Origin: Candidatus Polarisedimenticolia bacterium
Lineage (GTDB): Bacteria > Acidobacteriota > Polarisedimenticolia > JACPZX01 > DASXTC01
Direction of reading: 5' to 3'
NCBI GenBank assembly: GCA_050747525.1
Contig: JBOGOC010000097.1
Coordinates: 74,209-138,208, forward strand
Length of the DNA stretch: 64,000 bases
Both the position numbers and the translations under genes were made by a program. Below, piece by piece: positions 7,815-62,578 of this stretch. The stretch's first letter is position 1; each line of letters opens with the position of its first letter. A model generated the notes under the pieces. That model was given only the letters and a program-made list of their open reading frames with translations, was not told where the DNA came from and did no database searches.

Positions 7815-8981
7815 CTATTCCGTCCAGGTCCCAGCGAAGAAATTCAGGGCCAGTGGCGCGCCGAGTGCCGCGAACAGGAACAGCACGAGGTAATAAAGCC
7901 ACTTGCTCCTGCACAGGTACCCGAGCAGCATGAAGTGTGGGAACAGGGTCATGAGGTATCGCCCGATCGACCCCGTCGGCAGGGCCCCGGATCCCAGCGT
8001 GAGACTGAACGTCGAAAGCAGATAAATGGGCAGGCAGTAGAGCCAGTAGCTCGGCGCCATGAACCGCAGCGACAGGATCAGCAATCCGAGATGCGCGATC
8101 ATCGATGAAAGGTCGAGCAGCAGCAACGGCCGGTAGTAATGCCAGTATGGAATGACGCCGAACGCCTGGTACGAGAAGCTCAGCGCGGTGCCCAGCCCGA
8201 CCACCTGGCGCCCCCAGGCTGCCTGGACCGTGGCAAAGGCCAGGGGATCCTCGGTGGTACGCCAGCAGAACAGCATGAAGAGGCCGAGGGCCGCGGGGGG
8301 AAGCAGTAACCCCAGCGCTTCGAGACGACTCCGCCGCCGGGTATGCCATTCCCACGCGAGAGGCAGCACGATGGCAAGTCCCGCCAGGCGCGTCAACGTC
8401 GCGATCGCGCCCAGGCTCACGGCGATCCACCACCGTCCTGTCCGTGCGTGATAGAGAGTTGCCGCCACGAGGGCCAGGAAGAGCGATTCGGTGTAGCCGG
8501 CCGAGTAGAAATAGGAGAGCGGGAACAGCGCCACGAGCAGGACGGTCCTTTCTGCGGCCTCACGATCGAATTCGAGGGCGCAGATTCTGTACAGGTAGAC
8601 GAGATAGACCAGGAAGGACAGGTTGGCGATCAGGAAGAGCGCGCCGGCAATGTCTCCTCCGAGGCCCCGGCCGACGACGCGGGCCAGCATAGGCAAGACA
8701 GGAAAGAAGGCGAAGGTCGATTGCTCACCGGGACCCTTCCAGCTGTACCCGTTCCGGGCGATCTCCTCGTACCAGCCGGCATCCCATTGCATGAAGCTCG
8801 ATACCAGTCCGGCCTGCGGGACCGGACGGCTCGCCCCGTGCTCGCCGGGTCGCCAGGCCACGAACGCCAGGGCCAATGTGAAGAGCGCGACGCGGGAGGC
8901 CACGCCGATGCTGATTGGTGCGAGCCAGAGGTCCGGCCGGATGGCGCCCCGTATCTTGCGCGCAAGATGCAAAAGCTCCAT
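7815..8981 (-). CDS. GT-C fold integral-membrane glycosyl/mannosyltransferase (PMT/ArnT/DUF2029-like)
   Basis: About 11 predicted TM helices; aromatic-rich periplasmic loop near the N-terminus (SSFMQWDAGWYEEIARNGYSW). Start moved to ATG at 8981 (MELLHLARKIRG...) because it is preceded by the RBS AAGGAAGG. The track's start at 9065 adds 28 residues. Confidence 0.55.
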   Translation of the reverse strand: MELLHLARKIRGAIRPDLWLAPISIGVASRVALFTLALAFVAWRPGEHGASRPVPQAGLVSSFMQWDAGWYEEIARNGYSWKGPGEQSTFAFFPVLPMLARVVGRGLGGDIAGALFLIANLSFLVYLVYLYRICALEFDREAAERTVLLVALFPLSYFYSAGYTESLFLALVAATLYHARTGRWWIAVSLGAIATLTRLAGLAIVLPLAWEWHTRRRSRLEALGLLLPPAALGLFMLFCWRTTEDPLAFATVQAAWGRQVVGLGTALSFSYQAFGVIPYWHYYRPLLLLDLSSMIAHLGLLILSLRFMAPSYWLYCLPIYLLSTFSLTLGSGALPTGSIGRYLMTLFPHFMLLGYLCRSKWLYYLVLFLFAALGAPLALNFFAGTWTE

Positions 8982-9222
8982 CGCCCCATCCTTCCTTAGT
9001 TCTACATTCGCCGATCCAGCAGCGACCGGCCGCAAAATATAGGGTCGGCCTCGTTCGGGGCGCAAGAAGGCGGGGCTGAAGGGCGGGGACGGCGCTCCAT
9101 GACCCAGAGACCGGAGTTGTTCGAGGCCTACCGCCGGTATGCAGGTGGAGATGAGGGACCGTGGCCGTGTCGCCCCACTTCACCTCCTGCCCCTCCTTCG
9201 CGTCGACTTTCGATGCACCCGA

Positions 9223-12527: not shown

Positions 12528-13246
12528 TGAAGGCGAGCCATTCCCATCCGGGCGATGACCGGCTCTTCGACCTCGCGCACGGGCTGCTTCCACGTGACGT
12601 GGGGAAGACCTGCTTCGACCACCTGGCCGCCTGCTCCGAATGCGAAGATCGCTTCCGGGAGATGACGCGGGATCGGCATCGAGCGTTGAGCATGGAGCCT
12701 CAGACGCTCGAACCGTCCGGAGCGTCCACCATCAGGAGCATCCCGAGGCTGTGGGCCACGCTGGGGTTGTCGGCCGCGGCGATCATCCTCATGGCCGTCC
12801 TGTTTCTGCCCGGGCGGGAGGACGGGCCGCCGCCCTACTGGCTGCCCATCGAGGTCGGCAACACGCTGCTTCGCTCCGGGCCGGCCCCGGACAGGTACGC
12901 GAGAGCGTTGGAGGCGTACGAGCGCCACGACGCCGCACGCGTCGTCGCGATCCTGGAAAGCGAGCCGATCCCTCGTCAGGATCTCTTCATGCGGCTTGTC
13001 TACGCGAGCGCGCTTCTCCTCGAGGATCGCCCGAGGCAGGCGCGGGAGGAGCTCATGAGCATCCGGATCGACCGGCTGCCGGAGCCCTCTCGGCGTCGCG
13101 CGCGCTGGCTCCTGTACAGCAGCCAGCGCCAGTTGGCGGAAAATGAGGAGGCTGATGCCCTGCTGGCGCAGCTTGCCGCCGATCCGGGAGTGATCGGCGA
13201 TCTTGCGCGGGCCGAGATCGTCAGGCTGGGATCGGCGCAGCCATGA
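12524..13246 (+). CDS. anti-sigma factor (zf-HC2 zinc-finger, single TM, periplasmic domain)
   Basis: MMKASHSHP start overlaps the sigma stop. Zinc-binding motif HLAACSECEDRF. One TM helice (LWATLGLSAAAIILMAVLFL), then a periplasmic segment. Stop overlaps the next ATG. Confidence 0.6.
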   Translation: MMKASHSHPGDDRLFDLAHGLLPRDVGKTCFDHLAACSECEDRFREMTRDRHRALSMEPQTLEPSGASTIRSIPRLWATLGLSAAAIILMAVLFLPGREDGPPPYWLPIEVGNTLLRSGPAPDRYARALEAYERHDAARVVAILESEPIPRQDLFMRLVYASALLLEDRPRQAREELMSIRIDRLPEPSRRRARWLLYSSQRQLAENEEADALLAQLAADPGVIGDLARAEIVRLGSAQP

Positions 13247-15654: not shown

Positions 15655-15726
15655 AAATCCCTCCTCCCGCCGATCAGTCAGGGAGCCGGCGTCGTGAGCC
15701 GCTCCACCTTCAGGAGGAGAGTGGTG

Positions 15727-18700
15727 ATGAACCAGACCCCTGTCGCCTTCACCCGGTCGATTCCGCTGGTCCTGATCCTTCTCGTCCTGATGCCGGGGGG
15801 GGAGGTCGAGGCGGTGTCCCCTGCACCGCCGCAAGGGGCGCCTCCGGGCTCGGGGCAGTGGCTTGCCAGCTGGGAGGGGGCGCCTGCGCCGGGAGCCTTC
15901 CGCGCCGCCGAGGGCGTGGTGTCCCTGGGTGGGCCGCATGCGACTCAGGCAGAGGTGGTCGCCGCCGTGCAGAGCCACCTCGTCGCGAATCCGCAGCTCC
16001 TCGGGGGACTGGATCCTGCACAGGAGGTCGAGGTCGCCTATTCCGCGGGGATCCGCGACATGGTCTATGTCCACTACCGTCAGCTCCTGCAGGGAGAGGG
16101 GCTGGACGTGGAAGGGACCTGGGTGCGGTTCTCGGTCAAGCGGGGGGCCGGAGGCAGCATCATTCTGGACACGGACGTGCGCGTGTACCCGTCGCTGACG
16201 TCCTTGCTTCCCTCTGCGTCGCCGCGGCCGGGCGCCGAGCTGAATCAGGCGGCCCGGGCGGCCCTTGGGATCGCCGGGGGGACCCTCCTGCGGGAGAAGT
16301 ATGTCGTCCGGCACGTCGAGAGAAGGGCCGGTCAAGGCCGATGGTATCGGGTCTACGAGGCGCGCTTCGAGGAAAGCCCCTACACCGCCGTCGTCGACTC
16401 GGACACGGCCGAGGTGCTGGGCGTTCGCGACGATCGCCGTTACGCTGATCCGGCGATCCAGGTGGTCCAGGGGACGCTTCGTGGAGACGGCGTCTGGTTC
16501 GACCCGGTCACCACCGGCGAGGACCTCGACACCTTCAACCTCGCGGATCTCGCCGTGAACGCGGGCGGGCAGATCGTCTACACCGACGATCAAGGGCGCT
16601 TCATCTTCCCGACCCTCACGACACCGACCAACGTCAGCGCTCGGTTGACGGGACGCTGGGCGGATGTGTGGTCGTACTTTCTCGATGACCTGACCGTCTT
16701 GGGAGTCGCTACGCCGGGAGTCCCTCTCGACCTGCACTTCAACCCAGCCGGCTACCACAGCTATGAGGTAGCGCAGGTGAATGGCTACCACCACACGACT
16801 CTCGTACACGACTGGGTCAGCACGAGGCTTGGCAGCGCCCTCCCCATGCTGGACAGCTTCACCGTTCCAGTCTACGTGAACCTGCCGGGCCAACCATGCT
16901 ATGCATCCTTCAATGGCTCACTCAATTTCAATCGAGAAGGCATTCACGAGGGCAACGAGTGCATCAATACCGCCTACGACACCATCATCTACCACGAGTA
17001 CGGCCACTACGTGGACGCGTTGAGCCCCCTGGGAGAGGGAGAGGCTCTCGGAGAGGGTTTCGGGGACATGCTGGCGAGCTACGTGAGCGGCCAGCCCGAG
17101 ATTGGAGAGAACCTGGACGATCAGAGTCCTTTCCTCCGGACGGCCGACAACGACTACAGGTATCCCCCTGACGGGTTCGGGGAGATACACGAAGTCGGCC
17201 AGGCCTGGGCCGGCTTCGCATGGCATCTCCGCGAGAACCTGATCGCCGGGCTCGGGTCTGTGGCCGGCCGGCAGGCCGCCGAGGATCTCGTGATCCCGAT
17301 GTTCGTCGCGGATCCTTACAGCATTCCCGATGCCGTCTGGGAGGTGGTTCTTCTGGACGATGCGGACGAGGATCTCTCGAATGGCACGCCGCATCTCGCG
17401 GAGATCGCCGGCGCGGCGGCCCGGCACGGCCTCTTCCCCTTCCACTCCGATTCGGTGACGGTCATTTCCTATCCGGCCATGACGTCGGTCGAGGCCTCGC
17501 AAGGCACCGTCCCTGTCATCGGGACCGTGGATCCCGCCGCCGTCTATCCGGGCCTCGTGCTCCAGGACTACGAGTTGTCTTACGGCTTCGGGCGCAACCC
17601 CGGGAGCTGGATCTCGCTGGCCACCGGCACGAGCGCCGTCCGGAACGGCCTCCTGGGGACCTGGGACTTCAGCGCGCTGCCTGTCGGGCTGTACAGCCTC
17701 AGGCTCGTTGCGCGGGCGACAAACGGCCTGCTGTTTCAGTTCGTGACGAAGGTCGGAATCGAAGCGACGATCACACCGATCACCACGGATCCGGCCTGGC
17801 AATTCAGCCCGGCGATTTCGGGCCGCAACGTCGTCTGGGAAGACCATCGCAATGGATTCGCCTTCGCGGACATCTGGCGTCACGACCTCGTCACGGGCGC
17901 CGCGTCGAGCGTGACGACGTCCCCGGGGCGCCAGTCAAACCCGGACGTCGCAGGAAGTCTTGTCGTGTGGGAGGACTACCGCAGTGACTTTCACGGAGAC
18001 GTCTACCTCTTCGATCTGTCGACGGGCTCCGAATGGCCCCTCGCCACCGGAGCCTTGAACCAGATCGATGCCAGGGTCTCGGGGAACCGCGTGGTCCGGA
18101 CGGACTACGGGAACGGGAACGCGGACGTGATTCTGTGCGAGTTCGATCCGGCGACGGGCCAGTGCCCCCAGCGCTGGTCGACGAACCATGCGGCCACCCA
18201 GGAGCTCCCCGCCGTGTCAGGGAACGTGGTCGCGTGGACGGATTATCGCAGCGGCAACGCGGACGTTCGCGCATGCACTTACAATCCCGCGACCGGTGCG
18301 TGCGGCACTCTCTTCGCGCCGGCGGACCCGTCGATTCAGTGGTACCCGCACGTCTCGGATCCGCTCATCGTCTGGGAGGACTTCAGGAGCGATCCCGGCT
18401 GCTTCCCGTACCCCGGTGGTCCCGTCTGCGACACGGACATCTACCTGCGTGATGGCGCAGTCCGGACCATCGCCATCTCGTCGCCGGGGCTCCAGATGGA
18501 TCCGGTGGTCGACGCCGGGCGTAAGCTCGTGGTCTGGTCAGGGATGGTCGAGGACAACCTCGACATCTTCTACTGCAGGTACGATCCGGTGAGCGGGGCC
18601 TGCCCCGCGCAACAGCTCACCTTTGATCCGGGCAACCAGACGAATCCGGCCATCCATGGCGACATGATCATCTGGTCCGACGACAGAGGCGGGAACCTGG

Positions 18701-20268
18701 ACATCTACTTCGTCAATCTGGGCAACGACGCGCCGGTCTTTCCGCCGGTCCCGATTCCGGTCAGCCTCGACGCCGGCGAGGCGTACAGCGTGGATCTCAC
18801 GGCGACCGATCCGGACTTCGAGCCCGTGACCTACCCCGCGGCGACCCTGCCTTTCGGGGCTACGTTCGATCCGGTGACTCACGTCTTCAGCTGGACACCG
18901 ACCAACTCGCAGGGCGGCACGCACAACATCACGTTCAGCGCGAGGGATGCCCATGGAGCGACGGGCTACAGACTGCTGTCCATCGTCGTCACCGTGCTCC
19001 ACAACGAGCTGGTGACCGCCGCCGGGAACCAGACGAATCCCGCCGTGACGTCCCAGTCCGACGGGAACCTGGTGGTGTTCGAGGACGACCGGTCCGGTGA
19101 CATGGAGCTCTACCTCCACAACCCGACCACGGGCCGCGACATCCGGCTGACGAACCATCCCGCCGGACAACGCAGCCCGTTCCTGTACGGCAGGTCGGTT
19201 CTGTGGGAGGACAACCGTACGGGCGTGTGGAACATCTTCCAGTGTCTGTACGATCCCGTCGCTGAGACCTGCCCGCCGCAGCAGGTCAGCTTCCCGCTGG
19301 CTCCTGTCGTCAACTACATCCGGGCCGAAAAACCCGAGCGCTCCGGGGATCTCATCGTCTGGCAGGGCTATCGGAACTTCCTCAACTTCCAGTACGACAT
19401 CTGGGTCAACGACACGGCGGGCGGCGGCGAGCGGGCGATCACGTTGATCGAGGGCTCACAGGAGAACCCGGCGGTCAACGGAAGCCTCATCGCGTGGCAG
19501 GACAACCGGCACGGGAACTGGGAGATCTACCTCTGCCGGTACAGCCAGGGCAACTGCCCCGAGCGTCGGATCACCACGGATCCCGGGATTCAGAGGAACC
19601 CGGTCATCTCGGGGAGCTACGTGGTCTGGGAGGACAATCGCAACGGGAACTGGGATCTGTACTACTGCCTCTACAACTTCGCGACCGGCGCCTGCCCCGC
19701 GCAGCAGCTCACCAGCCATCCGGCGGATCAGATGGCGATCACGATCAACGGCGGGGTCCGCTGGCTCTGGCAGGACAACCGCGATGGAGACTGGGACATC
19801 TTCACCTGTTACAACGACTTCGTCACCTGTCCGATCATGCGGCTGACGGATCATCCGGCCAATCAGCAGTCACCCGCCATCTCGAGGGACAGTTTCGGGG
19901 ATCTCGTCGTCTGGCAGGACGATCGCGGAGGAACCTGGGATCTACGCTACGCGGACTTCTTCAACCGGGCACCGGTGATCGAACCCATCGGCACCAAGGA
20001 GGTTCAGCCCAACGGCACGCTCTCGTTCCACGTCTTCGCGACGGATCCGGAGGGAGATCCGGTGGCCTACTCCGCCAGCGGCCTTCCGAGCGGGGCGGTC
20101 TTCTATCCGGCCAGCCAGCGATTCACCTGGACCCCGACGCCCTCGCAGCTGGGAACGCACACCGTGAAGTTCACCGCGGAGGATCCCTACTCGAGCTCGT
20201 CCTCGGTGACGATCACCATCAGGGTGCGGTACGTGAAGCCCGATCCTCGAGACCCCACGGAGATGTGA
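15727..20268 (+). CDS. secreted multidomain zinc metalloprotease: PepSY/FTP-like propeptide + M4/M36 (thermolysin/fungalysin-like) catalytic domain + 2 x (7-blade PD40/TolB-like beta-propeller + cadherin-like He_PIG domain)
   Basis: Start taken at MNQTPVAF...LVLILLVLMPGGEVEA (signal peptide). Catalytic HExxH with downstream Glu ligand motif: IIYHEYGHYVD...GEGEALGEGFGDMLAS. Fourteen blade-like repeats of consensus NQtNPAisGxxVVWeDxRnGNwDIY, several with a paired-Cys loop (DPATGQCPQRW, NPATGACGT, DPVSGACPAQQLT, DPVAETCPPQQVS, SQGNCPERRIT, NFATGACPAQQLT). Two about 90-aa cadherin-like domains (NDAPVFPPVPIPVSLDAGEAYSVDLTATDPDFEPVTY... and NRAPVIEPIGTKEVQPNGTLSFHVFATDPEGDPVAY...). Confidence 0.75.
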   Translation: MNQTPVAFTRSIPLVLILLVLMPGGEVEAVSPAPPQGAPPGSGQWLASWEGAPAPGAFRAAEGVVSLGGPHATQAEVVAAVQSHLVANPQLLGGLDPAQEVEVAYSAGIRDMVYVHYRQLLQGEGLDVEGTWVRFSVKRGAGGSIILDTDVRVYPSLTSLLPSASPRPGAELNQAARAALGIAGGTLLREKYVVRHVERRAGQGRWYRVYEARFEESPYTAVVDSDTAEVLGVRDDRRYADPAIQVVQGTLRGDGVWFDPVTTGEDLDTFNLADLAVNAGGQIVYTDDQGRFIFPTLTTPTNVSARLTGRWADVWSYFLDDLTVLGVATPGVPLDLHFNPAGYHSYEVAQVNGYHHTTLVHDWVSTRLGSALPMLDSFTVPVYVNLPGQPCYASFNGSLNFNREGIHEGNECINTAYDTIIYHEYGHYVDALSPLGEGEALGEGFGDMLASYVSGQPEIGENLDDQSPFLRTADNDYRYPPDGFGEIHEVGQAWAGFAWHLRENLIAGLGSVAGRQAAEDLVIPMFVADPYSIPDAVWEVVLLDDADEDLSNGTPHLAEIAGAAARHGLFPFHSDSVTVISYPAMTSVEASQGTVPVIGTVDPAAVYPGLVLQDYELSYGFGRNPGSWISLATGTSAVRNGLLGTWDFSALPVGLYSLRLVARATNGLLFQFVTKVGIEATITPITTDPAWQFSPAISGRNVVWEDHRNGFAFADIWRHDLVTGAASSVTTSPGRQSNPDVAGSLVVWEDYRSDFHGDVYLFDLSTGSEWPLATGALNQIDARVSGNRVVRTDYGNGNADVILCEFDPATGQCPQRWSTNHAATQELPAVSGNVVAWTDYRSGNADVRACTYNPATGACGTLFAPADPSIQWYPHVSDPLIVWEDFRSDPGCFPYPGGPVCDTDIYLRDGAVRTIAISSPGLQMDPVVDAGRKLVVWSGMVEDNLDIFYCRYDPVSGACPAQQLTFDPGNQTNPAIHGDMIIWSDDRGGNLDIYFVNLGNDAPVFPPVPIPVSLDAGEAYSVDLTATDPDFEPVTYPAATLPFGATFDPVTHVFSWTPTNSQGGTHNITFSARDAHGATGYRLLSIVVTVLHNELVTAAGNQTNPAVTSQSDGNLVVFEDDRSGDMELYLHNPTTGRDIRLTNHPAGQRSPFLYGRSVLWEDNRTGVWNIFQCLYDPVAETCPPQQVSFPLAPVVNYIRAEKPERSGDLIVWQGYRNFLNFQYDIWVNDTAGGGERAITLIEGSQENPAVNGSLIAWQDNRHGNWEIYLCRYSQGNCPERRITTDPGIQRNPVISGSYVVWEDNRNGNWDLYYCLYNFATGACPAQQLTSHPADQMAITINGGVRWLWQDNRDGDWDIFTCYNDFVTCPIMRLTDHPANQQSPAISRDSFGDLVVWQDDRGGTWDLRYADFFNRAPVIEPIGTKEVQPNGTLSFHVFATDPEGDPVAYSASGLPSGAVFYPASQRFTWTPTPSQLGTHTVKFTAEDPYSSSSSVTITIRVRYVKPDPRDPTEM

Positions 20269-28753: not shown

Positions 28754-28763
28754 GACCGACGGT

Positions 28764-28785
28764 TATAATACTGACCACCGGTCAG
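28764..28785. promoter_or_regulatory. TATAAT -10 hexamer abutting a 6-3-6 inverted repeat (ctgacc-acc-ggtcag): candidate TetR operator in the divergent promoter
   Basis: ggttataatactgaccaccggtcagaagcg lies in the 59-bp gap between the tetR start (28753, minus) and the Ntn-hydrolase-LRR start (28813, plus). Confidence 0.35.
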
Positions 28786-28812
28786 AAGCGCAAGCCCCAT
28801 GGGAGGTGTTCG

Positions 28813-30915
28813 ATGCTCCACCACCGTGCTCGCGTGATCCCGTCATCCGGCCTCGTCCTCTTACTCTTCGCCACCGGTTGTCTCTCCGCCGCCGGCGATG
28901 ACACAGTCGTCCAGCAGGACCGTGTCATTGCCGGCGGCCCCAACGACTCCCTGGAGGTCCGCCACATCGTCCTGCGAGGGACCAACGAGCAGATCGGACG
29001 CGCGCTGGCCGAGATCGCCAAGGAGCGCTACGGCGTCCGGCCCAATCCCGCCATGGATCCCCTGCAGATGCGCGCTCAGCGCCGTTACCTCGAGCGCAAT
29101 TACCCCATCCTCCTCGACCGCATGCGCGGCGTCGCGGCGGCGTACGGCAGATCGATCGAGGAGGACGGCTGGGACTTCACGACGCTCATGTTCACCGACC
29201 TGCGAGCCGGCTGCTCCGTCGCGCACCTGCCGCCGTCGTCGACTGCGAACGGCAAGAGCGTGGTGAGCCGCGACTACGACTTCACGACCGGCGCCCTCAA
29301 CTTCGGGTTCCTCGAGGAGGGGATGCTGCATCCGACCGCCCGCCCCTACCTGCTCGAGCTTCACCCCGATCGTGGGTACGCCTCCATCGCGATGGTCGCC
29401 TATGACCTCCTGAGCGGCGTGCTCGACGGCATCAACTCCGAAGGTCTTACCGTCACTCTGGCCTTGGACGACACGCTCGTTTCCAGCAACGCCACGGAGC
29501 CGACACGGGGCCCGGCCGTGGGCCTCCACGAGGTGCAGACGCTCCGCCTGCTCCTCGACACGTGCGCCACGGTGGAGGAGGCGAAGCAGACGCTGATGGC
29601 GACCAAGCAGTACTACCAGTACGTCCCCGTCCACTACCTGATCGCGGACCGCAGCGGCAAGGCCTTTGTCTGGGAATACTCCGAGTTTCACAACAAGGAG
29701 TACGTCATGGAGAGCCCGGGGCAGCCTCTGGTCATGACGAACTTCACGCTCCACAAGCAGCTCGAGGACGGCAAGCCCCCTTCGGCGGAAAAGGCGAGAG
29801 GCGTCTGCAAGCGCTACGCGTACCTGAGCGAGAAGCTCGCGGCCGGGAACCTCGACGACAAGGTCATCCGCGGTTTCCACCAGAACGTGGATGCGCAGAT
29901 GTCGCAGGCGGCCGACCCATCCAGCCCTCCGGAGCGCACCTTCTGGCACGCCTTCTACTATCCGGAGGAGCGCCGGGTGCGCCTGAGCTACTACCTCAAG
30001 GACGAGCCGTTCCCCGGAAACGAGCGCTTCGTACGCCCGGTCCGAACCGACTACCTGGATTTCCGGCTTGAGCCGACGGAGAGTGTGCCGGCGAAGGCGG
30101 AGACACGCTCGGGATCGGCAGCGCCCCCCGCCGCATCGCCGGCCCGCCCGGCACCCTTGGACGCGCAGGCGGCCGTCGAGGGGGCCGGCGTCGCGTCAGC
30201 CATCGAGGCCGCAGGTGGCGGCGTCGAGCTTAAGGGAAAGCGGGTCGTCGGCGTGAGCCTCGACAAGGCGACCAGGCTCGAGACCGTCATCCCGCTGCTC
30301 GGCCAGCTCTCCGACCTCGAATCGTTGAGCCTCGGAAACCCCTCCTTGACCGATGCCGATGTTCGCGCTCTCGAGGGGCTGCCCAAGCTCCGTACTCTCG
30401 GCTTCATGGGAGCGCCCATCGGTGACGCGGCGCTCGAGGTCATGAAGACCTTGCCTTCTCTGCGCCAACTGAACATCATCGGCACGAAGGTGACGGACGC
30501 CGGTCTCGTGCACCTGCAGGGCCTCACCGCGCTCGAATACCTCGGCCTCAAGGGCACCGCCATCACCGACGCCGGCCTCGCGCATCTCAAGAACCTCACC
30601 GGCCTCAACACCCTCAACCTCGCCGACACCAGAATCACCGGCGTCGGCCTCGTGCACCTCGCCGGCATGAGGCGCCTGGAGGGCGTGAACCTGTCGAACA
30701 ACAATGTGACCGACGCCGGTCTCGGACACCTGGGTCGAATGCCCGGCCTCGGCGGCCTCAACCTTGCAGGGACGAAGGTGACGGATGCCGGCCTCGTCCA
30801 CCTGAAGCAGCTCCCGAAGCTGACCAAGCTCAACGTGACGGGGACCGCGGTCACGGAGCAAGGCGTGAAGGACGCGAAGAAGTTCCTGCCCTTCTGGTGC
30901 ACGGTGACGCGGTAG
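28813..30915 (+). CDS. lipoprotein: Ntn-hydrolase (peptidase C45 / choloylglycine-hydrolase-like acyltransferase) fused to a C-terminal leucine-rich-repeat domain
   Basis: Lipobox LLLFATGCLS. Putative autoproteolytic G|C site (DLRAGCSVAHLP) and INSEGLTVTL as in the C45/C59 Ntn family. Ala/Pro-rich linker. Then about 12 LRRs of the LxxLxLxGTKVTDAGLVHLKGLTxL type. Confidence 0.6.
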   Translation: MLHHRARVIPSSGLVLLLFATGCLSAAGDDTVVQQDRVIAGGPNDSLEVRHIVLRGTNEQIGRALAEIAKERYGVRPNPAMDPLQMRAQRRYLERNYPILLDRMRGVAAAYGRSIEEDGWDFTTLMFTDLRAGCSVAHLPPSSTANGKSVVSRDYDFTTGALNFGFLEEGMLHPTARPYLLELHPDRGYASIAMVAYDLLSGVLDGINSEGLTVTLALDDTLVSSNATEPTRGPAVGLHEVQTLRLLLDTCATVEEAKQTLMATKQYYQYVPVHYLIADRSGKAFVWEYSEFHNKEYVMESPGQPLVMTNFTLHKQLEDGKPPSAEKARGVCKRYAYLSEKLAAGNLDDKVIRGFHQNVDAQMSQAADPSSPPERTFWHAFYYPEERRVRLSYYLKDEPFPGNERFVRPVRTDYLDFRLEPTESVPAKAETRSGSAAPPAASPARPAPLDAQAAVEGAGVASAIEAAGGGVELKGKRVVGVSLDKATRLETVIPLLGQLSDLESLSLGNPSLTDADVRALEGLPKLRTLGFMGAPIGDAALEVMKTLPSLRQLNIIGTKVTDAGLVHLQGLTALEYLGLKGTAITDAGLAHLKNLTGLNTLNLADTRITGVGLVHLAGMRRLEGVNLSNNNVTDAGLGHLGRMPGLGGLNLAGTKVTDAGLVHLKQLPKLTKLNVTGTAVTEQGVKDAKKFLPFWCTVTR

Positions 30916-54898: not shown

Positions 54899-55184
54899 AG
54901 GGGAAGCCCTTCGGCGGTACGCCATCGTGGATGAGGCCATGATGCGCGAAGGGGCCGAGAAGCTCTTGCCGCGCCCAAGTTGCCCGCAGGGGTTAGAGAC
55001 GTGTCTTGGGGGCATGAGCACGTCGCGTGCTGCATGAAGATTGAGTCCAGAGAGGGTTCCGCCGATCTGCGGCCTCGGGAAAACCCGCGTGCTTTCGCCT
55101 TTTCCTGACTGAATGCCGCGCCCGCCACATTGTGCAGGTTTTTTTCTTGACACCGCCCGGACAACAAGAGCAGTCTCACCAATC

Positions 55185-58100
55185 ATGAAATTGATCCTCG
55201 TCTTCGGCTGCTGCCTTGTCATGACGGCGCCGATTTGCGCCGAGGAAATCCTGCTGCGCCGAGACGCGCCTTCCGGACTGAACCCCCCGGCGCTCGAGAT
55301 GTTCGTGGATGCGGTCGCGCCGTTCGTGACGAACGCGCGGAGATCGCCGGCGATCCTCGATGTGCCGCGCGACGTCACGCTCGAGCTGCGCGCGGTCAGC
55401 GATCGCCCCGCCCAATTCCTCTGGGAGGGAGCCAAGGGGGCGCGCAGCCAGGAGCACGGCTCGACGGCCAGCCGGCGGTTTCCAAAGCCCGGACGCTACG
55501 TGATCAGGGTGACGGCGGTTTTCGACGCCGCGACCCAGGTTCCCCGGCTCGAGCGAACGCTGGTCGTCCGTGTGGGGCCGGAGCGGGCGTCCGGCATCCG
55601 GATCCGGATGGTCAATCCCGCCGTCGGGGGCACCGAGATCGGAACCCGCCGCAGCGCGCGGGTGTGCCGGGCGAGCATCAGCCATCCCCAATACACGCAC
55701 CTGGTGGAATGGCGGACGCTGGACGGCTCCGCCGATCCCGGCATCGGTCTGACCTGGGCTCCCACCTTCCGAAGAGTCGGCATCCATCCCGTCCAGGTCG
55801 GCAACGACCGGACCCAGGCGGCGGTGTTCGAGACGTTCGACGTCGCGCGGGTGGACCGGTCGGGCCCCTACGGAGAGATGATCTGGTACGACTTTCCGAT
55901 CACCTTCAGGGCGTCCACGGTTCCTGTGGGCTACGAGCGCCACGTCTCCTGGAAGGTGGACACCCATCACGACATGTTCACGCGCGCAGAGCCCTCGTCG
56001 GGGACGGGGGGCCAGTTCACGACGGTCTTCCGTATGTCGGGAGCGGACAGACTGTTCTGGGCGATGGTTTACGCGTCCGAGGTGGAAGCCTTCGACAATC
56101 CCGACCAGCTGCCGCCGCAGCAATCGGTGAACTCGGGGCTTGAGGCTCCCAATGACGCTGGGCAGTCCTCGCTGAACCTCGCGCGTCTGCCCGTGAACGT
56201 GAACGCCGGGAGCGTGTACCTCCACTCCGGTGAGTACCGTTTCTCGGAGGTCGTTCTGAGGATCCCGGGACGCGGGTTCGACTTCGTCTGGGGCATGACG
56301 CACCGCTCCCGCGAAGGACGGCTCACCGCCATGGGAAACAACTGGGACCACTCGTACAACATCCGGGTCGAGGTCAATCTGCTCAATCCGACCCAAAGGT
56401 GGCTCTATGACGGCCATGGGCGGCGTGACACGTACAGCCCGGTGGGCGGGAACTGTTGGGCCAGTAACGGATTCTTCGCGGAGCTGTGCCTGCAACCGGA
56501 TCTGAAGTACACGCTCACTCTGCTCGACCGGACCGTGTGGACCATGAAAGCCATCGATGGGACGCTCACCGCGGGGAAGATTCTGGAGATCCGGGACCGC
56601 AACCAGAACGCGATGACCTTCGGATATGACGGATCGGGGCGGCTGGCCACGATCGTGGACACCCTGGATCGCATCATCCAGGTGACCAGCACCGGGACCT
56701 TCATCCAGTCGGTGAACGATTTCCGGGGCCGCGTGGTGCAATTCGCGTTCTACCAGGCCGGTGACGCGGGAGGCGATGCCGGGGATCTCAAGTCATGGAC
56801 CACCCCCGCGGTCACGGGCACCCCCAACGGAAACGACTTCCCCGCAGGCAAGACGACCACCTGCACGTACAGCAAGGGGTTCGTCGACCCGGCGCTGAAC
56901 CACAACCTGCTGACGATCACGGATCCGCGGGGCCTGGTCATCGTGCAGAACCAGTACCAGACCTCCGGGTTCCCCACGGACATCGTCAACGGGATGCTGT
57001 TTCCCAACGGGCGGGTGACGTTCTATTACGTCGGCCAGGTCCCCGGTCCGGGCAACGACATGGCGACCGTGAAGACCATCGTCAAGGATCGCGCCGGCAA
57101 CGTGCGGGAAGCCTTATTCAACGCGCGCAACGAGCTGGTGCTGCTCAAGGAGTACACCGGCCGCGCCCCCGATCTCACGTCGACCGTCACGGAGTCTCTC
57201 AACCGACCCGTCGCGAAGCTTCGGCCGGGTGATCCCGGCGTCTACCAGACCCACTTCGCCTTCAACCCGGACTCCATGCTGAAGAGGATCGATTATCCCC
57301 GCGGCAATGTGACCTTGATGAACTACGAGGTGGACGTGAATCCCACCCCGCTGAGGCGATCCCGGGGGAACCTCCGCGTCCGGACACGCCAGCCGGGAAC
57401 GGCGGGTGGAGACCAGTCCTCGATCGTCGACAGCTGGCAATACGACCCGAATTTCAACATGGTCGTGCAGTACGTGGATGGCCGGGGCCATCCCACCATC
57501 CATTCGCTGGACGCCTCGGGCAACCGGATCCAGACGCAGCATCGCATTCCGACCATCCTCGAGAACTGGGAGGTCAACGCCTTCGGGCAGGTGACGGCGC
57601 ACATCCTGCCGGACAACGGCAGCGGATGGCGGCGGCGGGACGAGTTCGCCTACTACACGTCGGGTTCCCAGCGAGGCTACCTCGAGTCGTCCACCCTCGA
57701 CGCGCTGGGACGGGCGCTGCTGACGGGCTACAGCTGGAACCCCTCCGGCGCGCTCATCGCCCTCGTCGACGCGAAGGGGAACGACACCGCGTTCGACGTC
57801 AATGCCCTGGATCAGGTGGTGCGGGAAACCTCGCGCGAGGTCGCACCGGAGTCCGGGGTGCGGTACGTGACCGACAGCTTCTATGATGCCGCGAACAACC
57901 TCGTGCGGCGCGACGTGCGCAACGTGGACGAGGACGGTGTGCTGCAGCCGAACCAGGATTTCACCACCACGTACGAGCGTGACGCGCTGAACCGGATGAC
58001 GGCAGTGGTCCAGGAAGTGGACGAGACGCGGAGCATCAGGACGGAGTTCGGCTACGACGTGAACGATCACCAGAGCCTGATCCGCAGAGGCGAGGCGACG

Positions 58101-61100
58101 GCGGGACGGATCCCGGCCGACACGCTCACCACGCTCTACGACGAGCGGGACTTCGTCTTCCGTGAGATCCAGGCTCAGGGGGCCACGGAACAGTCCACAA
58201 GCCAGCGCGACTACGACCTCAATGGGAACCCGTCCCGGGTCTCCGAAGGGCTGGAGGCGAGTCCTCACGTCTCATCGGTGGTCTGCGACGGATTCGATCG
58301 GGCGATCACCTCGGTCGACCCCATGGGCAACGTCTCGAGGCTTCGCTACGATGCCAACGGCAACGTGGTCTCGCAACGGGTTGAGGGTGAGCTGGTGGAT
58401 CTGCCGGGGAGCACGGCGAACGTCCGCCTGAGGGAAGCCTTCACGACCTACGACTTCCTCGATCGGCCGATCCGGGAGGACGAAGCGTTCTTCAACCGGC
58501 AGACGCAGGCGCCGGTGGGGGACGGGATGTCCTCCACGATCACCGACTACACGGGGATGTCCGCCGTGGCGCGCATCGAGGACGACAACGGCCACGCGAT
58601 CCTTCGTATCTACGACACCACGGGCGAGCTGGCCGAGACGACCGATGCGGAGGGCAACATCATCGCTTTCCTCTACGACGAGAACCTCAATGTGGTGACC
58701 CGGGAGGAGACGGATACGTGCGATCTGGGAGGCCCCGAGGATCGGTTCTCCACCACCTACATACTCGACGGCCTCGATCGCGTGATCCAGATGGTGGACT
58801 CCTCGGGAAACGTCTTCGACTATGCCTATGACTCACGGGGGAACGAGGCACGTACCAGCGACGGCGCCCGGGCGGCGCCCGAGCTTCCGGGAAACATCGT
58901 GACCCATGAGTACGACGGTGCGAACCGGCAGACATCGACCACCATGGTCCTGACGAACGACGGCACCGGCGGCGGCACTCCCGTGGGCAGCATCGGGCTC
59001 GGTCAGACGTGGGACGACAGTGGTCGGATCGCCTCGCAGATCGACGCCAACGGCCGCGCGACCTCCTACCAGTACGATCCGCTGGGCCGTGTCACCCGGA
59101 TGACCATGGCCGATGGAACGTTCTCGACGACGGTCTACGACGTGCACGATCACGAGGTCCAGGTGACCCAGGCCAACGGCACGTCGCTCACCTCGGTGTA
59201 CGACGATCTCGGCGGGATGACGAGCCGGACGATCGTTCCGGGGCCCGGGGTGTCGGCGGACACCACCTTCGAGACCTACCAGTACGACGGAGACTCGCAT
59301 GTCGTGCGCGCGGAGAACAACAATGCGATCGTGCTGCGCAGCTACGACTCGCTCTGGAACGTTACGGCCGAGACGCTCAACGGCGTGACCACCACCTTCA
59401 CCCGCGACGGTAAGGGGAACCAGACGGGAGCCGTCTATCCGGGAGGCCGCTCCCTCTCGACCACCTACGACGGCAACGATCGCAAGGTCGACATCAGCGA
59501 CGCCGCGGGCTTGGTGGCCATCTACGCCTACATCGGTCCGACGCGCGTTCAGCGCCGCACGCTGCGCAACGGAACGATCACCACCTACGCCTACGACGGC
59601 AAGGTCGGAGTGCCCAACCCGGGAGGAGACTTCGGCGTCAAGTACCCCGTGCGCATGACCCATCAGCGGACCGCTCCCCCCCTTGTCATCGACGATCGCA
59701 GCTTCGAGTGGAACCGCACCGGGAGCCGCACGGAGCAGAAAGACCTGCGCGTCGGCTCGCCCCGCCGCGCCACCCGGTACGACTACGACTCCGCCTACAG
59801 GCTGGCCCAGGCGCAGGACTTCGATCCCAACGGCATTCTGCTGCGGGATTCTCCGTACACGCTGGATGGAGCCGGTAATCGGCTGACCGTGGGCGGACCG
59901 GGGGGCGGGACCTACACTCGCAGCCCGGCGACGCCCTCTCCCGCCGACGCCCAGGTCAACCAGTACACGAGCACCCCCTTCGATGCGCGCACGTACGACG
60001 ACAACGGCGACCTGAAGACCATGACCCCGGCGGGACCGGGAGGCGTTCGGTCCCTGACGTTTGACTACGCGGGCCGGCTGGTCGGCTACCAGGACGCCGG
60101 GACGGGCACGACGCTGCACCTTTTCTATGACCCGTTTGGCAGGCGCATCCGGCGTACGGTCACCGGAGCCGGCACGGCCGACACGCGGTTCTTCTTCGAC
60201 GAATGGCAGGAGATCGAGGAGCAGAACAGCGCGGGCGCCACGCAGGCGACGTACGTCTACGGGAACAACATCGACGAGGTCCTGAACATGGAGCGTTCCG
60301 GGGCGTCGTATTTCTACCACGGGGACGACCTCGACGGGACCAGGGCCGTCACCGACGCCACGGGGACGGTGGTGGAGCGCTACGACTATGGCGACTTCGG
60401 ACAACCGGTCTTCATGAACGCCGCCGGGACCCCGATCCCCGGCTCGGCCATCGGCAACCCCTTCCTCTTCGCCGGCCGCCGGTACGACCCGGTGACGGGA
60501 CTCTACGACTATCGCAAGCGGCAGTTCGATCCGATGACCGGCCGGTTCGTCACGCGCGATCCGACGGGTCCCTGGGGGGACGACCAGAACGAGGGGAATC
60601 CCTACACCTACGCAGGGAACACTCCGTGGACCCTGATCGACCCCACAGGTGAGGCCGCCCTCGAGCCGACGTGGGCCAAGGACCCGAACGGAGTTGCAAC
60701 CTGCTCACCGGGGCAGCAGGCCACGGCGTGGGCCGCGACGAACAAGGCGCAGAGCCTGGCACGGGAGGCCGCGCGTCGTCTGGGCTCGCTCAAGCCGCGG
60801 GAACGGTGGTGCGATGACGGGTACCGGCTCTGGTTCGGCAACTACTCCAAGACGCGGTTCCGGACCGTCCGAAGGGTCTTCGACGAGGTGAGGCTCTGGT
60901 TGGACACCCAGAATGTCCCGCTGAACTGCGAGACCCCTTGCACCAAGATGATAGACGGCCAGGAAGCGAACGCCCACACGGACTTCGCACCGGGATCGAC
61001 CATCCACCTGTGCCAGCCGTTCTTCGGCAGCCTGTACGAGAGCAACGCCTTCGCCCAGATCGGCGACCAGGACGCAGATGGACAGCGGGGGGCAGGACTG

Positions 61101-61403
61101 ATCCACGAGATGACTCACTGGTACGGCACCAATGTTTCGCAGCATGAGAGATACGGCCCCGGCGAGTGTCTCCGCTTCGCGCAGTCGCATCCCATCATGG
61201 CCACCCGGAATGCACAGAACTATGCCCTCTACACCATCTCGCCGCTCCAGGGCGGCTGCGGAGCCGTGGATGTCTGGTCCAAGAGCCTGGTCAACGTCGT
61301 CCGGGGGGCGGCCGGGTACGTGGCCAAGTCGGCGCAGCGGGCGGGGGAGAAAGTCTCGAACGCCGCCAAGAGGATCAAGAAGAAGATCAAGAAATGGTTC
61401 TGA
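55185..61403 (+). CDS. RHS/YD-repeat polymorphic toxin: signal peptide, N-terminal domain, long YD-repeat shell, RHS-repeat-associated core, C-terminal HExxH metallopeptidase-like toxin domain
   Basis: Start at MKLILVFGCCLVMTAPICAEE. Dozens of YD repeats (FGYDGSGRLATIVD, YDANGNVVSQRVEG, YQYDPLGRVTRMTMADG, ...). RHS core (YFYHGDDLDGTRAVTDATGTVVERYDYGDFGQPV...NPFLFAGRRYDPVTGLYDYRKRQFDPMTGRFVTRDPTGPWGDDQNEGNPYTYAGNTPWTLIDPTGE). About 250-aa C-terminal tail with GLIHEMTHWYGTNVSQHERYG (HExxH followed by GT...xxYG, aspzincin/M35-like). Confidence 0.8.
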   Translation: MKLILVFGCCLVMTAPICAEEILLRRDAPSGLNPPALEMFVDAVAPFVTNARRSPAILDVPRDVTLELRAVSDRPAQFLWEGAKGARSQEHGSTASRRFPKPGRYVIRVTAVFDAATQVPRLERTLVVRVGPERASGIRIRMVNPAVGGTEIGTRRSARVCRASISHPQYTHLVEWRTLDGSADPGIGLTWAPTFRRVGIHPVQVGNDRTQAAVFETFDVARVDRSGPYGEMIWYDFPITFRASTVPVGYERHVSWKVDTHHDMFTRAEPSSGTGGQFTTVFRMSGADRLFWAMVYASEVEAFDNPDQLPPQQSVNSGLEAPNDAGQSSLNLARLPVNVNAGSVYLHSGEYRFSEVVLRIPGRGFDFVWGMTHRSREGRLTAMGNNWDHSYNIRVEVNLLNPTQRWLYDGHGRRDTYSPVGGNCWASNGFFAELCLQPDLKYTLTLLDRTVWTMKAIDGTLTAGKILEIRDRNQNAMTFGYDGSGRLATIVDTLDRIIQVTSTGTFIQSVNDFRGRVVQFAFYQAGDAGGDAGDLKSWTTPAVTGTPNGNDFPAGKTTTCTYSKGFVDPALNHNLLTITDPRGLVIVQNQYQTSGFPTDIVNGMLFPNGRVTFYYVGQVPGPGNDMATVKTIVKDRAGNVREALFNARNELVLLKEYTGRAPDLTSTVTESLNRPVAKLRPGDPGVYQTHFAFNPDSMLKRIDYPRGNVTLMNYEVDVNPTPLRRSRGNLRVRTRQPGTAGGDQSSIVDSWQYDPNFNMVVQYVDGRGHPTIHSLDASGNRIQTQHRIPTILENWEVNAFGQVTAHILPDNGSGWRRRDEFAYYTSGSQRGYLESSTLDALGRALLTGYSWNPSGALIALVDAKGNDTAFDVNALDQVVRETSREVAPESGVRYVTDSFYDAANNLVRRDVRNVDEDGVLQPNQDFTTTYERDALNRMTAVVQEVDETRSIRTEFGYDVNDHQSLIRRGEATAGRIPADTLTTLYDERDFVFREIQAQGATEQSTSQRDYDLNGNPSRVSEGLEASPHVSSVVCDGFDRAITSVDPMGNVSRLRYDANGNVVSQRVEGELVDLPGSTANVRLREAFTTYDFLDRPIREDEAFFNRQTQAPVGDGMSSTITDYTGMSAVARIEDDNGHAILRIYDTTGELAETTDAEGNIIAFLYDENLNVVTREETDTCDLGGPEDRFSTTYILDGLDRVIQMVDSSGNVFDYAYDSRGNEARTSDGARAAPELPGNIVTHEYDGANRQTSTTMVLTNDGTGGGTPVGSIGLGQTWDDSGRIASQIDANGRATSYQYDPLGRVTRMTMADGTFSTTVYDVHDHEVQVTQANGTSLTSVYDDLGGMTSRTIVPGPGVSADTTFETYQYDGDSHVVRAENNNAIVLRSYDSLWNVTAETLNGVTTTFTRDGKGNQTGAVYPGGRSLSTTYDGNDRKVDISDAAGLVAIYAYIGPTRVQRRTLRNGTITTYAYDGKVGVPNPGGDFGVKYPVRMTHQRTAPPLVIDDRSFEWNRTGSRTEQKDLRVGSPRRATRYDYDSAYRLAQAQDFDPNGILLRDSPYTLDGAGNRLTVGGPGGGTYTRSPATPSPADAQVNQYTSTPFDARTYDDNGDLKTMTPAGPGGVRSLTFDYAGRLVGYQDAGTGTTLHLFYDPFGRRIRRTVTGAGTADTRFFFDEWQEIEEQNSAGATQATYVYGNNIDEVLNMERSGASYFYHGDDLDGTRAVTDATGTVVERYDYGDFGQPVFMNAAGTPIPGSAIGNPFLFAGRRYDPVTGLYDYRKRQFDPMTGRFVTRDPTGPWGDDQNEGNPYTYAGNTPWTLIDPTGEAALEPTWAKDPNGVATCSPGQQATAWAATNKAQSLAREAARRLGSLKPRERWCDDGYRLWFGNYSKTRFRTVRRVFDEVRLWLDTQNVPLNCETPCTKMIDGQEANAHTDFAPGSTIHLCQPFFGSLYESNAFAQIGDQDADGQRGAGLIHEMTHWYGTNVSQHERYGPGECLRFAQSHPIMATRNAQNYALYTISPLQGGCGAVDVWSKSLVNVVRGAAGYVAKSAQRAGEKVSNAAKRIKKKIKKWF

Positions 61404-61421: not shown

Positions 61422-62021
61422 TCACTTCTCGACCGGCAGCGCGGCCACCTGGCGCTCCAGCTCCTCGGCGCCGTCCTCGACGGGGTTAGCCCACCAGACG
61501 GGGGAGGGGAACGGCTCTTCCCAGACCGCGCCCGGTGAGAAGCCCGCGATGACGTCCCAGGCGATGGCGCCGGGGGCCCAGTCGGGCTCGCGTCCCTGGG
61601 ATCGATAGATCAGGACGGCGCGCTCCATCATGCGCGGCGAAGCCCACCGTTGAGGGTCCCAGTACTCCGTCACGCGGGGGTCTCGCACCCGGGCGCGCGC
61701 CTCGTCGCCGGGGGGGCCGGTGTCCGACGCGATGACCGGCAGCCAGATCACGAACACGCGCACGCGCGCGCCGGGATGCGCCGCAAGGGTGGTGCCGACT
61801 GCGGAGGCCCCCCGCAGGCAGGTCTGTCACGTGGGGGAGAGCGCCACGACGTAGCGCCCCCGGTCCGACGCGCCATCGAAGTCCCGGCGCAGCGCGGACG
61901 CCGTGGACTCGTCGAGTGTGCGCAGGGCGGCCGGATCGTCCGGCGGCTTTCCGCCCGTCCCCTGGCAGGCAGCCCCCAGGCAGGTCATGGCCAGCAGGAT
62001 GGCCGGCGCCGCGGCCCTCAT
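61422..62021 (-). CDS. candidate selenoprotein: TlpA/ResA-like thioredoxin-fold thiol-disulfide oxidoreductase with U-x-x-C redox motif (in-frame TGA at 61827-61829)
   Basis: Minus-strand frame: MRAAAPAILLAMTCLGAACQG (signal) ...DFDGASDRGRYVVALSPT-[TGA]-QTCLRGASAVGTTLAAHPGARVRVFVIWLPV...RMMERAVLIYRSQGRE...IAGFSPGAVWEE. This aligns with the thioredoxin-fold TlpA/AhpC-TSA pattern (..[34 protein letters not shown]...VVVLGVNVD...). The TGA falls exactly where the first Cys of the CxxC motif belongs. It is read as a selenocysteine codon rather than a stop. The track splits this gene into 61827..62021 and 61422..61763. Its start overlaps the stop of the upstream methyltransferase (ATGA). Confidence 0.45.
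61795..61826 (-). promoter_or_regulatory. SECIS-like hairpin 9 nt downstream of the in-frame UGA
   Basis: mRNA reads UGA CAGACCUGC CUGCGG GGGGCCU CCGCAG UCGG. That is a perfect 6-bp GC-rich stem with a 7-nt G-rich loop, which can be extended with a bulge. Position and size resemble a bacterial SECIS upper stem-loop. Confidence 0.3.
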
Positions 62022-62578
62022 GAGGGCTTGCTCATCAGAAACGCGCGCGCTCCCGGAAACACGACGATCCCCTCGCGCAGGAAGCCCACCCCGGCGGCCG
62101 TCTGCACCAGGATGTCGAAGTCCTTCGCGCGCACGTGCATCCTGGGCTCGGCCACCAGCATCCGTCCTCCCGGGCGGAGCGCCCGGTAGGCCTGTGAGAA
62201 GAAGTCCGCCGCATCGGGCGCCTCGTGCACCATGAAGATGGCCGGCACGAAGTCCACGCGTCCCGCCATGTCCTCCACCCCCAGATGCCCGTGAGATCCG
62301 TGCCGGGCGTCGATCCGATCCGCCAGCCCCGCCCGCGCGGCGCGGCGCCGCAGCGCGGCGAGCATCCTGTCCTGCACGTCCACAGCCACCACGCGTCCCG
62401 AAGGCCCCACGAGGCGGGCCAGCTCCAGCGTGAAGAACCCCATCCCCGGGCCGGGCTCCAGCACCGTCATCCCCTCGCGCACGTGAGGCCCGAGCAGCTT
62501 AGCGGGATTCTGGCGGAGCCGCCGCAGCGGAATCAGGAGAAGATACCCGGCCCACCAGGGACAGAGGCGGTGCGGCAT
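62018..62578 (-). CDS. class I SAM-dependent methyltransferase
   Basis: Motif I VLEPGPGMGFFTLELARLVGPSGRVVAVDV. Post-I acidic (DVQDRML). Motif II/III region. Stop overlaps the start of the selenoprotein candidate. Confidence 0.65.
   Translation of the reverse strand: MPHRLCPWWAGYLLLIPLRRLRQNPAKLLGPHVREGMTVLEPGPGMGFFTLELARLVGPSGRVVAVDVQDRMLAALRRRAARAGLADRIDARHGSHGHLGVEDMAGRVDFVPAIFMVHEAPDAADFFSQAYRALRPGGRMLVAEPRMHVRAKDFDILVQTAAGVGFLREGIVVFPGARAFLMSKPS

Follow-up and report, generated by a model that had tools for sequence, protein, structure and literature searches.

Thioredoxin-fold proteins in which selenocysteine (Sec, U) replaces the first cysteine of a CxxC motif form an already well-known class of bacterial selenoproteins, and a Sec/Cys pair at this position of the fold is a classic selenoprotein signature (PMC13188914). 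The catalogued UxxC families of this fold comprise PF13098, Redoxin (PF08534), UGC-TlpA (cd02966) and GOS_C (NF045500), with PF13098 labeled as thiol:disulfide interchange protein and cd02966 as thiol-disulfide isomerase-like and UGC-TlpA (PMC13188914 Table 1). Here we analyze a stretch of 64,000 nucleotides (the window) of contig JBOGOC010000097.1 from a metagenome-assembled genome (MAG) of Candidatus Polarisedimenticolia (Acidobacteriota), hence an acidobacterium and not a myxobacterium. Its minus strand harbors a gene for a thioredoxin-fold selenoprotein that is missed by public annotation and very probably genuine, Sec insertion being judged from sequence comparison. Like the catalogued UxxC selenoproteins, the predicted product has Sec in place of the first Cys, a bacterial Sec insertion sequence (bSECIS) within the coding region just downstream, and homologues with Cys. 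Unlike these families, the window protein and 31 of its Cys-form relatives reach none of the corresponding Pfam or NCBIfam models; this separation rests on Pfam and NCBIfam, and cd02966-type CDD entries, which lie outside the comparison, could be identical to the present family.

Other described proteins resemble the family in part. The membrane-anchored thiol-disulfide oxidoreductases of TlpA, ResA, CcmG (DsbE) and YkuV type have a similar fold, with 5–19% sequence identity to the present family, and the TlpA-type motif W-C-x-x-C contrasts with SPT-[U/C]-x-x-C-[LV]-R-G-A-S; unlike in the TlpA group, Sec replaces the first Cys in most close family members. SaoT (NF040730), the thioredoxin-like selenoprotein of the SAO organometallic system, occurs in UPTC and CPTC variants (Haft & Gwadz, bioRxiv 10.1101/2022.07.06.499078); contact with a mercury-like metal, and not the activity of a classic reductase, has been proposed for it (bioRxiv 10.1101/2022.07.06.499078). 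Many members of the present family likewise read U-P-T-C. However, SaoT is an MJ0307-like protein of ~85 amino acids (aa) encoded in a nine-gene ABC-transport operon of anaerobic Firmicutes, whereas the present family is acidobacterial and TlpA-like with ~195 aa, and the read-through protein of the window matches neither NF040730 nor any other NCBIfam selenoprotein model at E ≤ 1.

The in-frame TGA and its conservation

The minus-strand reading frame from 62021 to 61422 contains 199 codons and a stop (61424–61422) and is open but for one TGA at 61829–61827, around which translation yields ...RGRYVVALSPT*QTCLRGASAVG.... A preliminary description of this DNA had pointed at two adjacent minus-strand open reading frames (ORFs) split by the in-frame TGA alone, and the ORF list and translation bear this out, the frames being 62021..61827 (64 aa) and 61763..61422 (113 aa, GTG start). 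NCBI lists both as hypothetical proteins, under MGH9870099.1 (64 aa) and MGH9870098.1 (113 aa). Both parts, however, jointly align to single-domain, full-length Cys homologues.

A protein database search with the read-through protein, carrying Cys for the stop, returned 25 relatives. Most of them are ~128 aa long and start directly after the TGA position, and three are full length. Where the window has ALSPT-TGA-QTCLRGASAV, two full-length relatives show LLSPTCPTCL[RK]GASAV. The earlier proposal that the TGA occupies the place of the N-terminal Cys of the redox motif is thus confirmed by alignment: in Cys homologues, exemplified by LLSPTCPTCLRGASAV against ALSPT-U-QTCLRGASAV in the window, Cys sits exactly at the TGA position. 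SPT-C-P-T-C is found there in P0024 and P0025 (protein relatives carry P numbers, nucleotide loci L numbers), and ~50 other full-length forms have Cys likewise.

At the DNA level, a metagenome scan confirmed at least 530 relatives among the first 600 candidate stretches, and the 80 best of these entered the analysis. All 84 fetched homologous loci in which the motif region is present (73 of them unique) carry TGA at the aligned position, and none has TAA, TAG or a Cys codon (TGC/TGT). These TGA-form loci stem from soil, rhizosphere and sediment metagenomes and from Acidobacteriota MAGs, and the same TGA is present in two assemblies of the window's own contig. Entropies at codon positions 1, 2 and 3 amount to 0.95, 0.39 and 1.56 in the 30 nt upstream of the TGA and to 0.99, 0.69 and 1.22 downstream; therefore, both flanks are translated in the same frame. 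Within the window, TGA is the commonest stop and ends 15 of 24 well-supported genes, including the overlapping methyltransferase gene, which rules out reassignment throughout the genome and calls for a local signal.

The gene calls inspected for TGA forms, those of NCBI, JGI and ENA among them, split the gene or place its start 3′ of the TGA, and a few translate the family TGA as Trp using an alternative genetic code. One such protein, P0049, has Trp at the Sec position, and its DNA (L088:188-784) holds TGA and an intact hairpin; the Trp-form entries P0049, P0038, P0039 and P0153 are artefacts of gene calling with TGA as Trp. If the gene were recognized as a single selenoprotein, thousands of entries in the databases would be corrected.

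Real codons other than TGA also occur, namely GGA (Gly) in L089:2024-2644 and GAT (Asp) in L090:639-1250, with a partly degraded hairpin; in these variants the redox site may have been lost recently. A tandem paralogue located ~1.4 kb upstream of the Sec-form gene (L054:~1767 and L058:~1743) has Ser in place of Sec/Cys (LSPTSVKCQRGAAAV), and this Ser form is found among the protein representatives as well (P0221).

The downstream hairpin and the decoding of the TGA

The preliminary description had further noted a GC-rich stem starting 9 nt after the TGA, and this element is indeed present: CUGCGG (61817–61812) and CCGCAG (61804–61799) enclose the loop GGGGCCU. In ViennaRNA and RNAalifold predictions the 6-bp stem grows by a G·U and a G-C pair to 8 bp, with a minimum free energy (MFE) of -11.5 kcal/mol. 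The bSECIS model asks for a loop of 3–9 nt, a stem of 4–16 bp and a G within the first two loop positions (PMC13188914 Fig. 2), together with a UGA-to-loop distance of 16–37 nt and an MFE of at most -7.5 kcal/mol (PMC13188914 Fig. 2). The window hairpin, with its 3-nt loop starting with G, 8 bp, 17 nt spacing and -11.5 kcal/mol, lies within all of these limits, in line with its earlier designation as SECIS-like.

Conservation of the hairpin extends across the family. All 73 unique homologues have an MFE of at most -7.5 kcal/mol, and pairing of the 6-bp core, scored on 70 distinct sequences, amounts to 98.6% of cells, a value reached by none of 500 column shuffles and compared with 30–73% in slid controls. 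RNAalifold recovers the same helix, two pairs longer than this core. An Rfam scan of the window, L001 and L003 returned a tRNA-Leu alone and no RNA family at the hairpin. Pair types vary within the stem, with C-G in 37 and G-C in 27 sequences at the base, G-C in 66 and A-U in 3, and U-A in 59 and U-G in 11. The base-pair switch shows in the protein as C-L-R-G-A-S-A-V versus C-V-R-G-A-S-A-L, both of which are found within the distant subfamily. For the six hairpin-encoded residues, entropies are 1.0, 0.4, 0, 0.5, 0 and 0 in TGA forms compared with 1.8, 2.8, 0.1, 1.8, 2.2 and 2.9 in Cys forms, while the columns on either side vary to the same degree in the two sets. The hairpin peptide is hence near-frozen in TGA forms only, which amounts to a constraint at the RNA level that is tied to the TGA; this constraint is the strongest independent argument for SECIS function. 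The 73 natural variants of the hairpin constitute a data set for the tolerances of acidobacterial SECIS elements.

According to the mechanism we propose, the UGA would be read as Sec through the hairpin, acting as SECIS element that recruits SelB with Sec-tRNA(Sec), while UGA elsewhere in the genome of the window would be an ordinary stop. Sec insertion would thus follow the standard bacterial type. Acidobacteria are documented users of Sec (PMC1794560 Table 2; PMC12013277 Table 2, Occallatibacter).

Several results weigh against this reading. Much of the C-G/G-C covariation separates clades and hence represents few independent events. The 66-nt region, at 66% G+C, is no more stable than its dinucleotide shuffles (z = +1.6), so stability alone is no evidence, and it is conservation that excludes chance instead. 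The read-through protein has no thioredoxin-type Pfam or NCBIfam match at E ≤ 1. Furthermore, tblastn with E. coli SelA, SelB and SelD, and Rfam and ARAGORN searches for tRNA-Sec, identified no selA, selB, selD or tRNA-Sec in the window, the 8.6 kb beyond it and the fetched loci (412 kb for window and loci), a result that says little either way, because only ~1–2% of a genome is covered.

Other explanations of the TGA have to be considered alongside Sec. It could be recoded differently, as Cys by a tRNA-Sec-like tRNA(Cys) together with a SelB paralogue, as Ser by an allo-tRNA, or as Trp by hairpin-stimulated near-cognate read-through. Opal-anticodon tRNAs(Cys) resembling tRNA-Sec, along with SelB paralogues, occur in some anaerobes and allo-tRNAs in Acidobacteria (PMC7609411). 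Nevertheless, the same source reports no selC*-type tRNA(Cys) for Acidobacteria (PMC7609411), and the fit of the hairpin to the canonical bSECIS model, the classic Sec/Cys signature and the known Sec usage of Acidobacteria render such recoding improbable. Even less probable are two separate small genes of 64 and 113 aa with the TGA as true stop. Such an arrangement agrees with gene callers splitting the gene everywhere and with the GTG downstream at 61763, but the called starts of the downstream fragment vary among homologues, lying directly after the Cys or 10–30 codons further on, and the segment from the TGA to these starts is conserved as protein. Moreover, full-length Cys homologues and AlphaFold2 (AF2) models contain one indivisible thioredoxin domain, and a stop that is TGA at 84 of 84 sites, always followed by the same hairpin, is unexpected for an ordinary gene boundary. 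A lone in-frame stop in a MAG could also mark a pseudogene or a sequencing or assembly error, and rare relatives do carry GGA (L089) or GAT (L090); given that 73 independent unique sequences, drawn from many samples, and two assemblies of the window contig share the same TGA, and that purifying selection on both flanks argues against a pseudogene, we consider the probability of this close to negligible. Selenocysteine is the decoding that we retain for the window gene.

Fold, family and gene neighborhoods

The preliminary description had called the read-through protein collinear with TlpA/ResA/AhpC-TSA members. This holds for the fold and fails for the sequence, as no Pfam or NCBIfam thioredoxin-type model is reached at threshold. 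Structures were modeled for P0001, a member of the window's own subfamily that is 54% identical to the window protein and has Asp at the Sec position, and for the Cys form P0024. Prediction by AF2 from an alignment of 31 Cys-form sequences gave a confident model, with a predicted local distance difference test (pLDDT) score of 92.9 and an N-terminal membrane helix followed by strand, CxxC and helix; P0001 adopts the same domain (pLDDT 88.1). A single domain spans both annotated parts: strand beta-1 is encoded before the TGA and helix alpha-1 after it. The predicted fold is thioredoxin-like, the dithiol motif lies where helix alpha-1 begins, and the closest structures belong to the ResA/DsbE/TlpA group. 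Sequence-based searches are less telling: among the 31 relatives the best sub-threshold models are Thioredoxin_4 (E 0.0037, 7 members) and Redoxin (E 0.0034, 1 member), their sub-cut-off status being read from one member whose score is shown, and a profile search of the PDB reached E ~1 at best, to a glutaredoxin and a thioredoxin oxidoreductase. The models thus place the family as TlpA-like at the level of structure, and it is outside the curated TlpA, Redoxin and AhpC-TSA families by sequence. Structures of glutathione peroxidases (GPx), which have Sec at a structurally equivalent position of the thioredoxin fold, are also among the matches, although weaker than those of the ResA/DsbE group; unlike the present family, GPx lack the +3 Cys, and the catalytic Gln and Trp of GPx are not evident here.

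A lipoprotein-like N-terminus, likewise part of the earlier description, is suggested by a lipobox-like end of the predicted signal peptide in the window protein and by canonical L-S-A-C and L-A-G-C motifs in close relatives. In more distant relatives and Cys forms, an N-terminal transmembrane helix takes the place of the lipobox. From these signals and anchors we infer that the domain is most likely extracytoplasmic, and the window protein is probably exported and lipid-anchored. Sec65 would lie at the N-terminus of helix alpha-1 with Cys68 one turn on, as in CxxC thiol-disulfide oxidoreductases. Given this CxxC-like placing, the most likely mode of action is that of an extracytoplasmic selenol/thiol pair, which could form a selenenylsulfide redox couple or chelate a soft metal or metalloid.

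A profile search of 1.84 billion cluster representatives returned 2,534 clusters at E ≤ 1e-3 and 1,009 at E ≤ 1e-10, so that the family comprises at least 2,500 clusters at 50% identity. Among the best 150 clusters, the N-terminal third is missing in 75 by a strict sequence test and in ~90 by eye when divergent fragments are included; these are presumed to be Sec forms, which would account for at least half of the best 150, while ~50 are full-length Cys forms. Other named relatives come from one Acidobacteriota MAG, Bryobacteraceae and Terriglobia, and the taxonomy of the family rests on few named MAGs because a scan of species-representative genomes gave one locus. The family is large, Sec-dominant, mainly acidobacterial and without a curated model, and it would bring soil Acidobacteriota into a selenoprotein catalogue built mainly on anaerobes and marine samples. 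It divides into two subfamilies: subfamily A, which includes the window protein, shows 47–64% identity and consists of putative lipoproteins, and subfamily B shows 33–41% identity and is predicted to be membrane-anchored. P0157 (708 aa), P0158 (621 aa) and P0160 (571 aa) contain the family domain twice, together with HMA domains and Cys-rich N-terminal segments. One Cys-form member is located directly upstream of microcompartment shell genes (BMC and three EutN/CcmL; L093:750-1896).

Neighborhoods were compared by ORF clustering around all loci and by targeted tblastn; the contig of L091, riddled with fragmented genes, was uninformative. Directly upstream of the window gene lies an S-adenosylmethionine (SAM)-dependent methyltransferase gene. 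The ATGA overlap described earlier is present (ATG 62021–62019, TGA 62020–62018), and both genes are therefore translationally coupled and probably co-transcribed; the pairing is, however, not conserved across the family. Since the best NCBIfam match of this methyltransferase, to the arsenite methyltransferase family, scores 57 bits against a cut-off of 263, it is no demonstrated ArsM; it contains a single Cys. A related enzyme is encoded near the family gene in L021, and apart from such occasional methyltransferases no conserved partner was found in subfamily A.

Loci of subfamily B are organized differently. A three-helix membrane protein of ~105 aa with the motif A-C-C-L-P-x-G is encoded directly upstream on the same strand in 23 of 40 loci; it matches MerC (E 0.02) besides the MerT model mentioned below. 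Further upstream, 9 of 21 loci carry a MerR-family regulator of metal-sensing type, which scores 100–116 bits to the CadR, ZntR, MerR and CueR models, all sub-cut-off. A small thioredoxin-like protein is encoded upstream in 8 of the 21 loci whose upstream sequence extends over 1.5 kb or more, and tblastn matches to it occur in 14 loci overall. Four loci contain a CopZ-N-terminal-type metallochaperone (124 bits, above cut-off). In L043:2554-3498 and L081:756-1556, the MerT-like CC-motif protein is fused in frame to the thioredoxin(U) domain, with TGA and hairpin kept, which naturally links MerT-like and thioredoxin-like U-x-x-C proteins. The same operon layout surrounds a Cys-form gene in L092, beside a ferritin and an RND efflux system, and distant family members are fused to HMA domains. 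A bona fide ArsM (301 bits, above cut-off) is encoded directly upstream of the family gene in L056, and L060 has a shorter, end-truncated ArsM homologue of the same BLAST cluster.

These neighborhoods suggest that the family handles soft metals or metalloids on the outer side of the membrane, with the U/CxxC motif as a ligand, as in MerP, or as the redox end of a relay. The subfamily B gene takes the slot of merP beside a MerT-like protein with a CC pair in helix 1 and after a MerR-type regulator, and the predicted periplasm-facing motif of two soft ligands is a further likeness to MerP. Unlike MerP, which has an HMA ferredoxin-like fold with GMTCxxC, the present family has a thioredoxin fold, and unlike in the mer operon, the similarity to MerT is weak and the window's subfamily lacks MerR/MerT context. 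The operon of the sister subfamily would comprise a MerR-type sensor, the small thioredoxin-like protein, the MerT-like membrane protein with its CC motif and, last, the family gene, and in our preferred reading the family would act as the periplasm-facing partner of a soft-metal handling system. Counting against metal handling, the match of the subfamily B membrane protein to MerT (RC607 type) covers its full length but is weak (E 1.3e-5, 25 bits, cut-off 130), a MerT-like gene was found upstream in 0 of 15 subfamily A loci, where the metal link is absent, and neither MerA nor MerB was seen near any family locus among those fetched. For the family as a whole we regard a metal-handling role as an open bet with slightly poorer than even prospects; for the window gene itself it is unlikely.

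The lack of MerA weakens a classical mercury-import reading and keeps alive a plain redox function, in which the family would be an extracytoplasmic thiol-disulfide reductase of TlpA/ResA/CcmG or ScsD type; this alternative differs in function alone and leaves Sec insertion in place. The substrates of the reductase would be partner proteins such as maturation factors of cytochromes or copper proteins, or oxidized periplasmic cysteines in need of repair, and the MerT-like and small cytoplasmic thioredoxin-like proteins would serve as a transmembrane electron relay analogous to CcdA/DsbD, with no metal path. The nearest structures are indeed reductases of ResA/DsbE type, and the gene order of small thioredoxin-like protein, membrane protein with conserved cysteines and periplasmic thioredoxin-like protein resembles a redox relay. 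Metal-induced periplasmic reductase systems such as the Scs system exist, and Hg(II) import makes little sense where no mercuric reductase is encoded nearby. On the other hand, the membrane protein resembles MerT/MerC, if weakly, and not CcdA/DsbD, distant members carry HMA-domain and Cys-rich metal-binding fusions, metallochaperone genes of CopZ-N-terminal type share the operon in the four loci mentioned, and no CcdA/DsbD, cytochrome c maturation or Sco genes are found among the conserved neighbors. We consider the reductase function a credible option that nonetheless has the balance of probability against it.

Returning to metal handling, its most specific form would make the family a selenium-based, periplasm-facing receptor for Hg(II) or another soft metal or metalloid. 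Controlled by a MerR-type sensor, it would stand in for MerP beside a MerT-like transporter of non-canonical type, and it would be widespread among the Acidobacteriota of soils. The window's lipoprotein subfamily, which lacks MerR/MerT neighbors and in the window is coupled to a SAM methyltransferase, would have been re-deployed with that enzyme. We put this forward as a speculative and rather doubtful model. If it were true, soil selenium supply would directly condition bacterial mercury or arsenic handling. The MerR-type sensors, MerT-like proteins and fusions, CopZ-like proteins and ArsM make it testable whether the use of selenium is connected with the handling of metals or metalloids in soils.

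Other features of the window

Coordinates of the selenoprotein locus and of further genes are listed in Table 1.

Table 1 Features of the selenoprotein locus and other genes in the window
Feature	Position	Strand	Remarks
Selenoprotein gene (predicted)	61422..62021	-	Sec = codon 65, motif U65-Q-T-C68
In-frame UGA, predicted Sec codon	61827..61829	-	TGA conserved; first Cys of CxxC in Cys forms
UGC codon, Cys68	61818..61820	-	second residue of the U-x-x-C redox or metal-binding motif; Cys invariant in all Sec and Cys forms
Bacterial SECIS hairpin (predicted)	61799..61817	-	8-bp stem 61817-61810/61806-61799, loop GGC 61809-61807
Predicted N-terminal signal peptide	61965..62021	-	ends lipobox-like L-G-A-A-C (Cys19); read from sequence
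SAM-dependent methyltransferase gene, class I	62018..62578	-	186 aa, MGH9870100.1; stop TGA overlaps the selenoprotein ATG
RHS/YD-repeat protein	55113..61403	+	2,096 aa; C-terminal Aspzincin_M35 domain (Pfam list of L087/L096)
Glycosyl hydrolase family 47	6220..7755	+	class I alpha-mannosidase, E 1e-116
PIG-V-type mannosyltransferase	7815..9179	-	adjoins the family 47 gene
TPR-CHAT protein	13156..15654	+	ends with TAG
Unannotated ORF	15655..20268	+	1,537 codons; same frame as the TPR-CHAT gene, after its TAG
Acyl-CoA:6-APA acyltransferase/choloylglycine hydrolase-type protein	28756..30915	+	C-terminal leucine-rich repeats

The RHS/YD-repeat gene, which probably encodes a polymorphic toxin, runs towards the selenoprotein gene, and their stops are only ~20 bp apart. 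Two further stops were considered as sites of a second selenoprotein in the window, the TAG at 15652–15654 and a TGA at ~28148, and both turned out to be ordinary gene boundaries. The TPR-CHAT gene and the long ORF that follows it may form a CHAT-protease-associated system. Glycosyl hydrolase family 47 and PIG-V are mostly eukaryotic families, hence their adjacent occurrence here is unusual in a bacterium.

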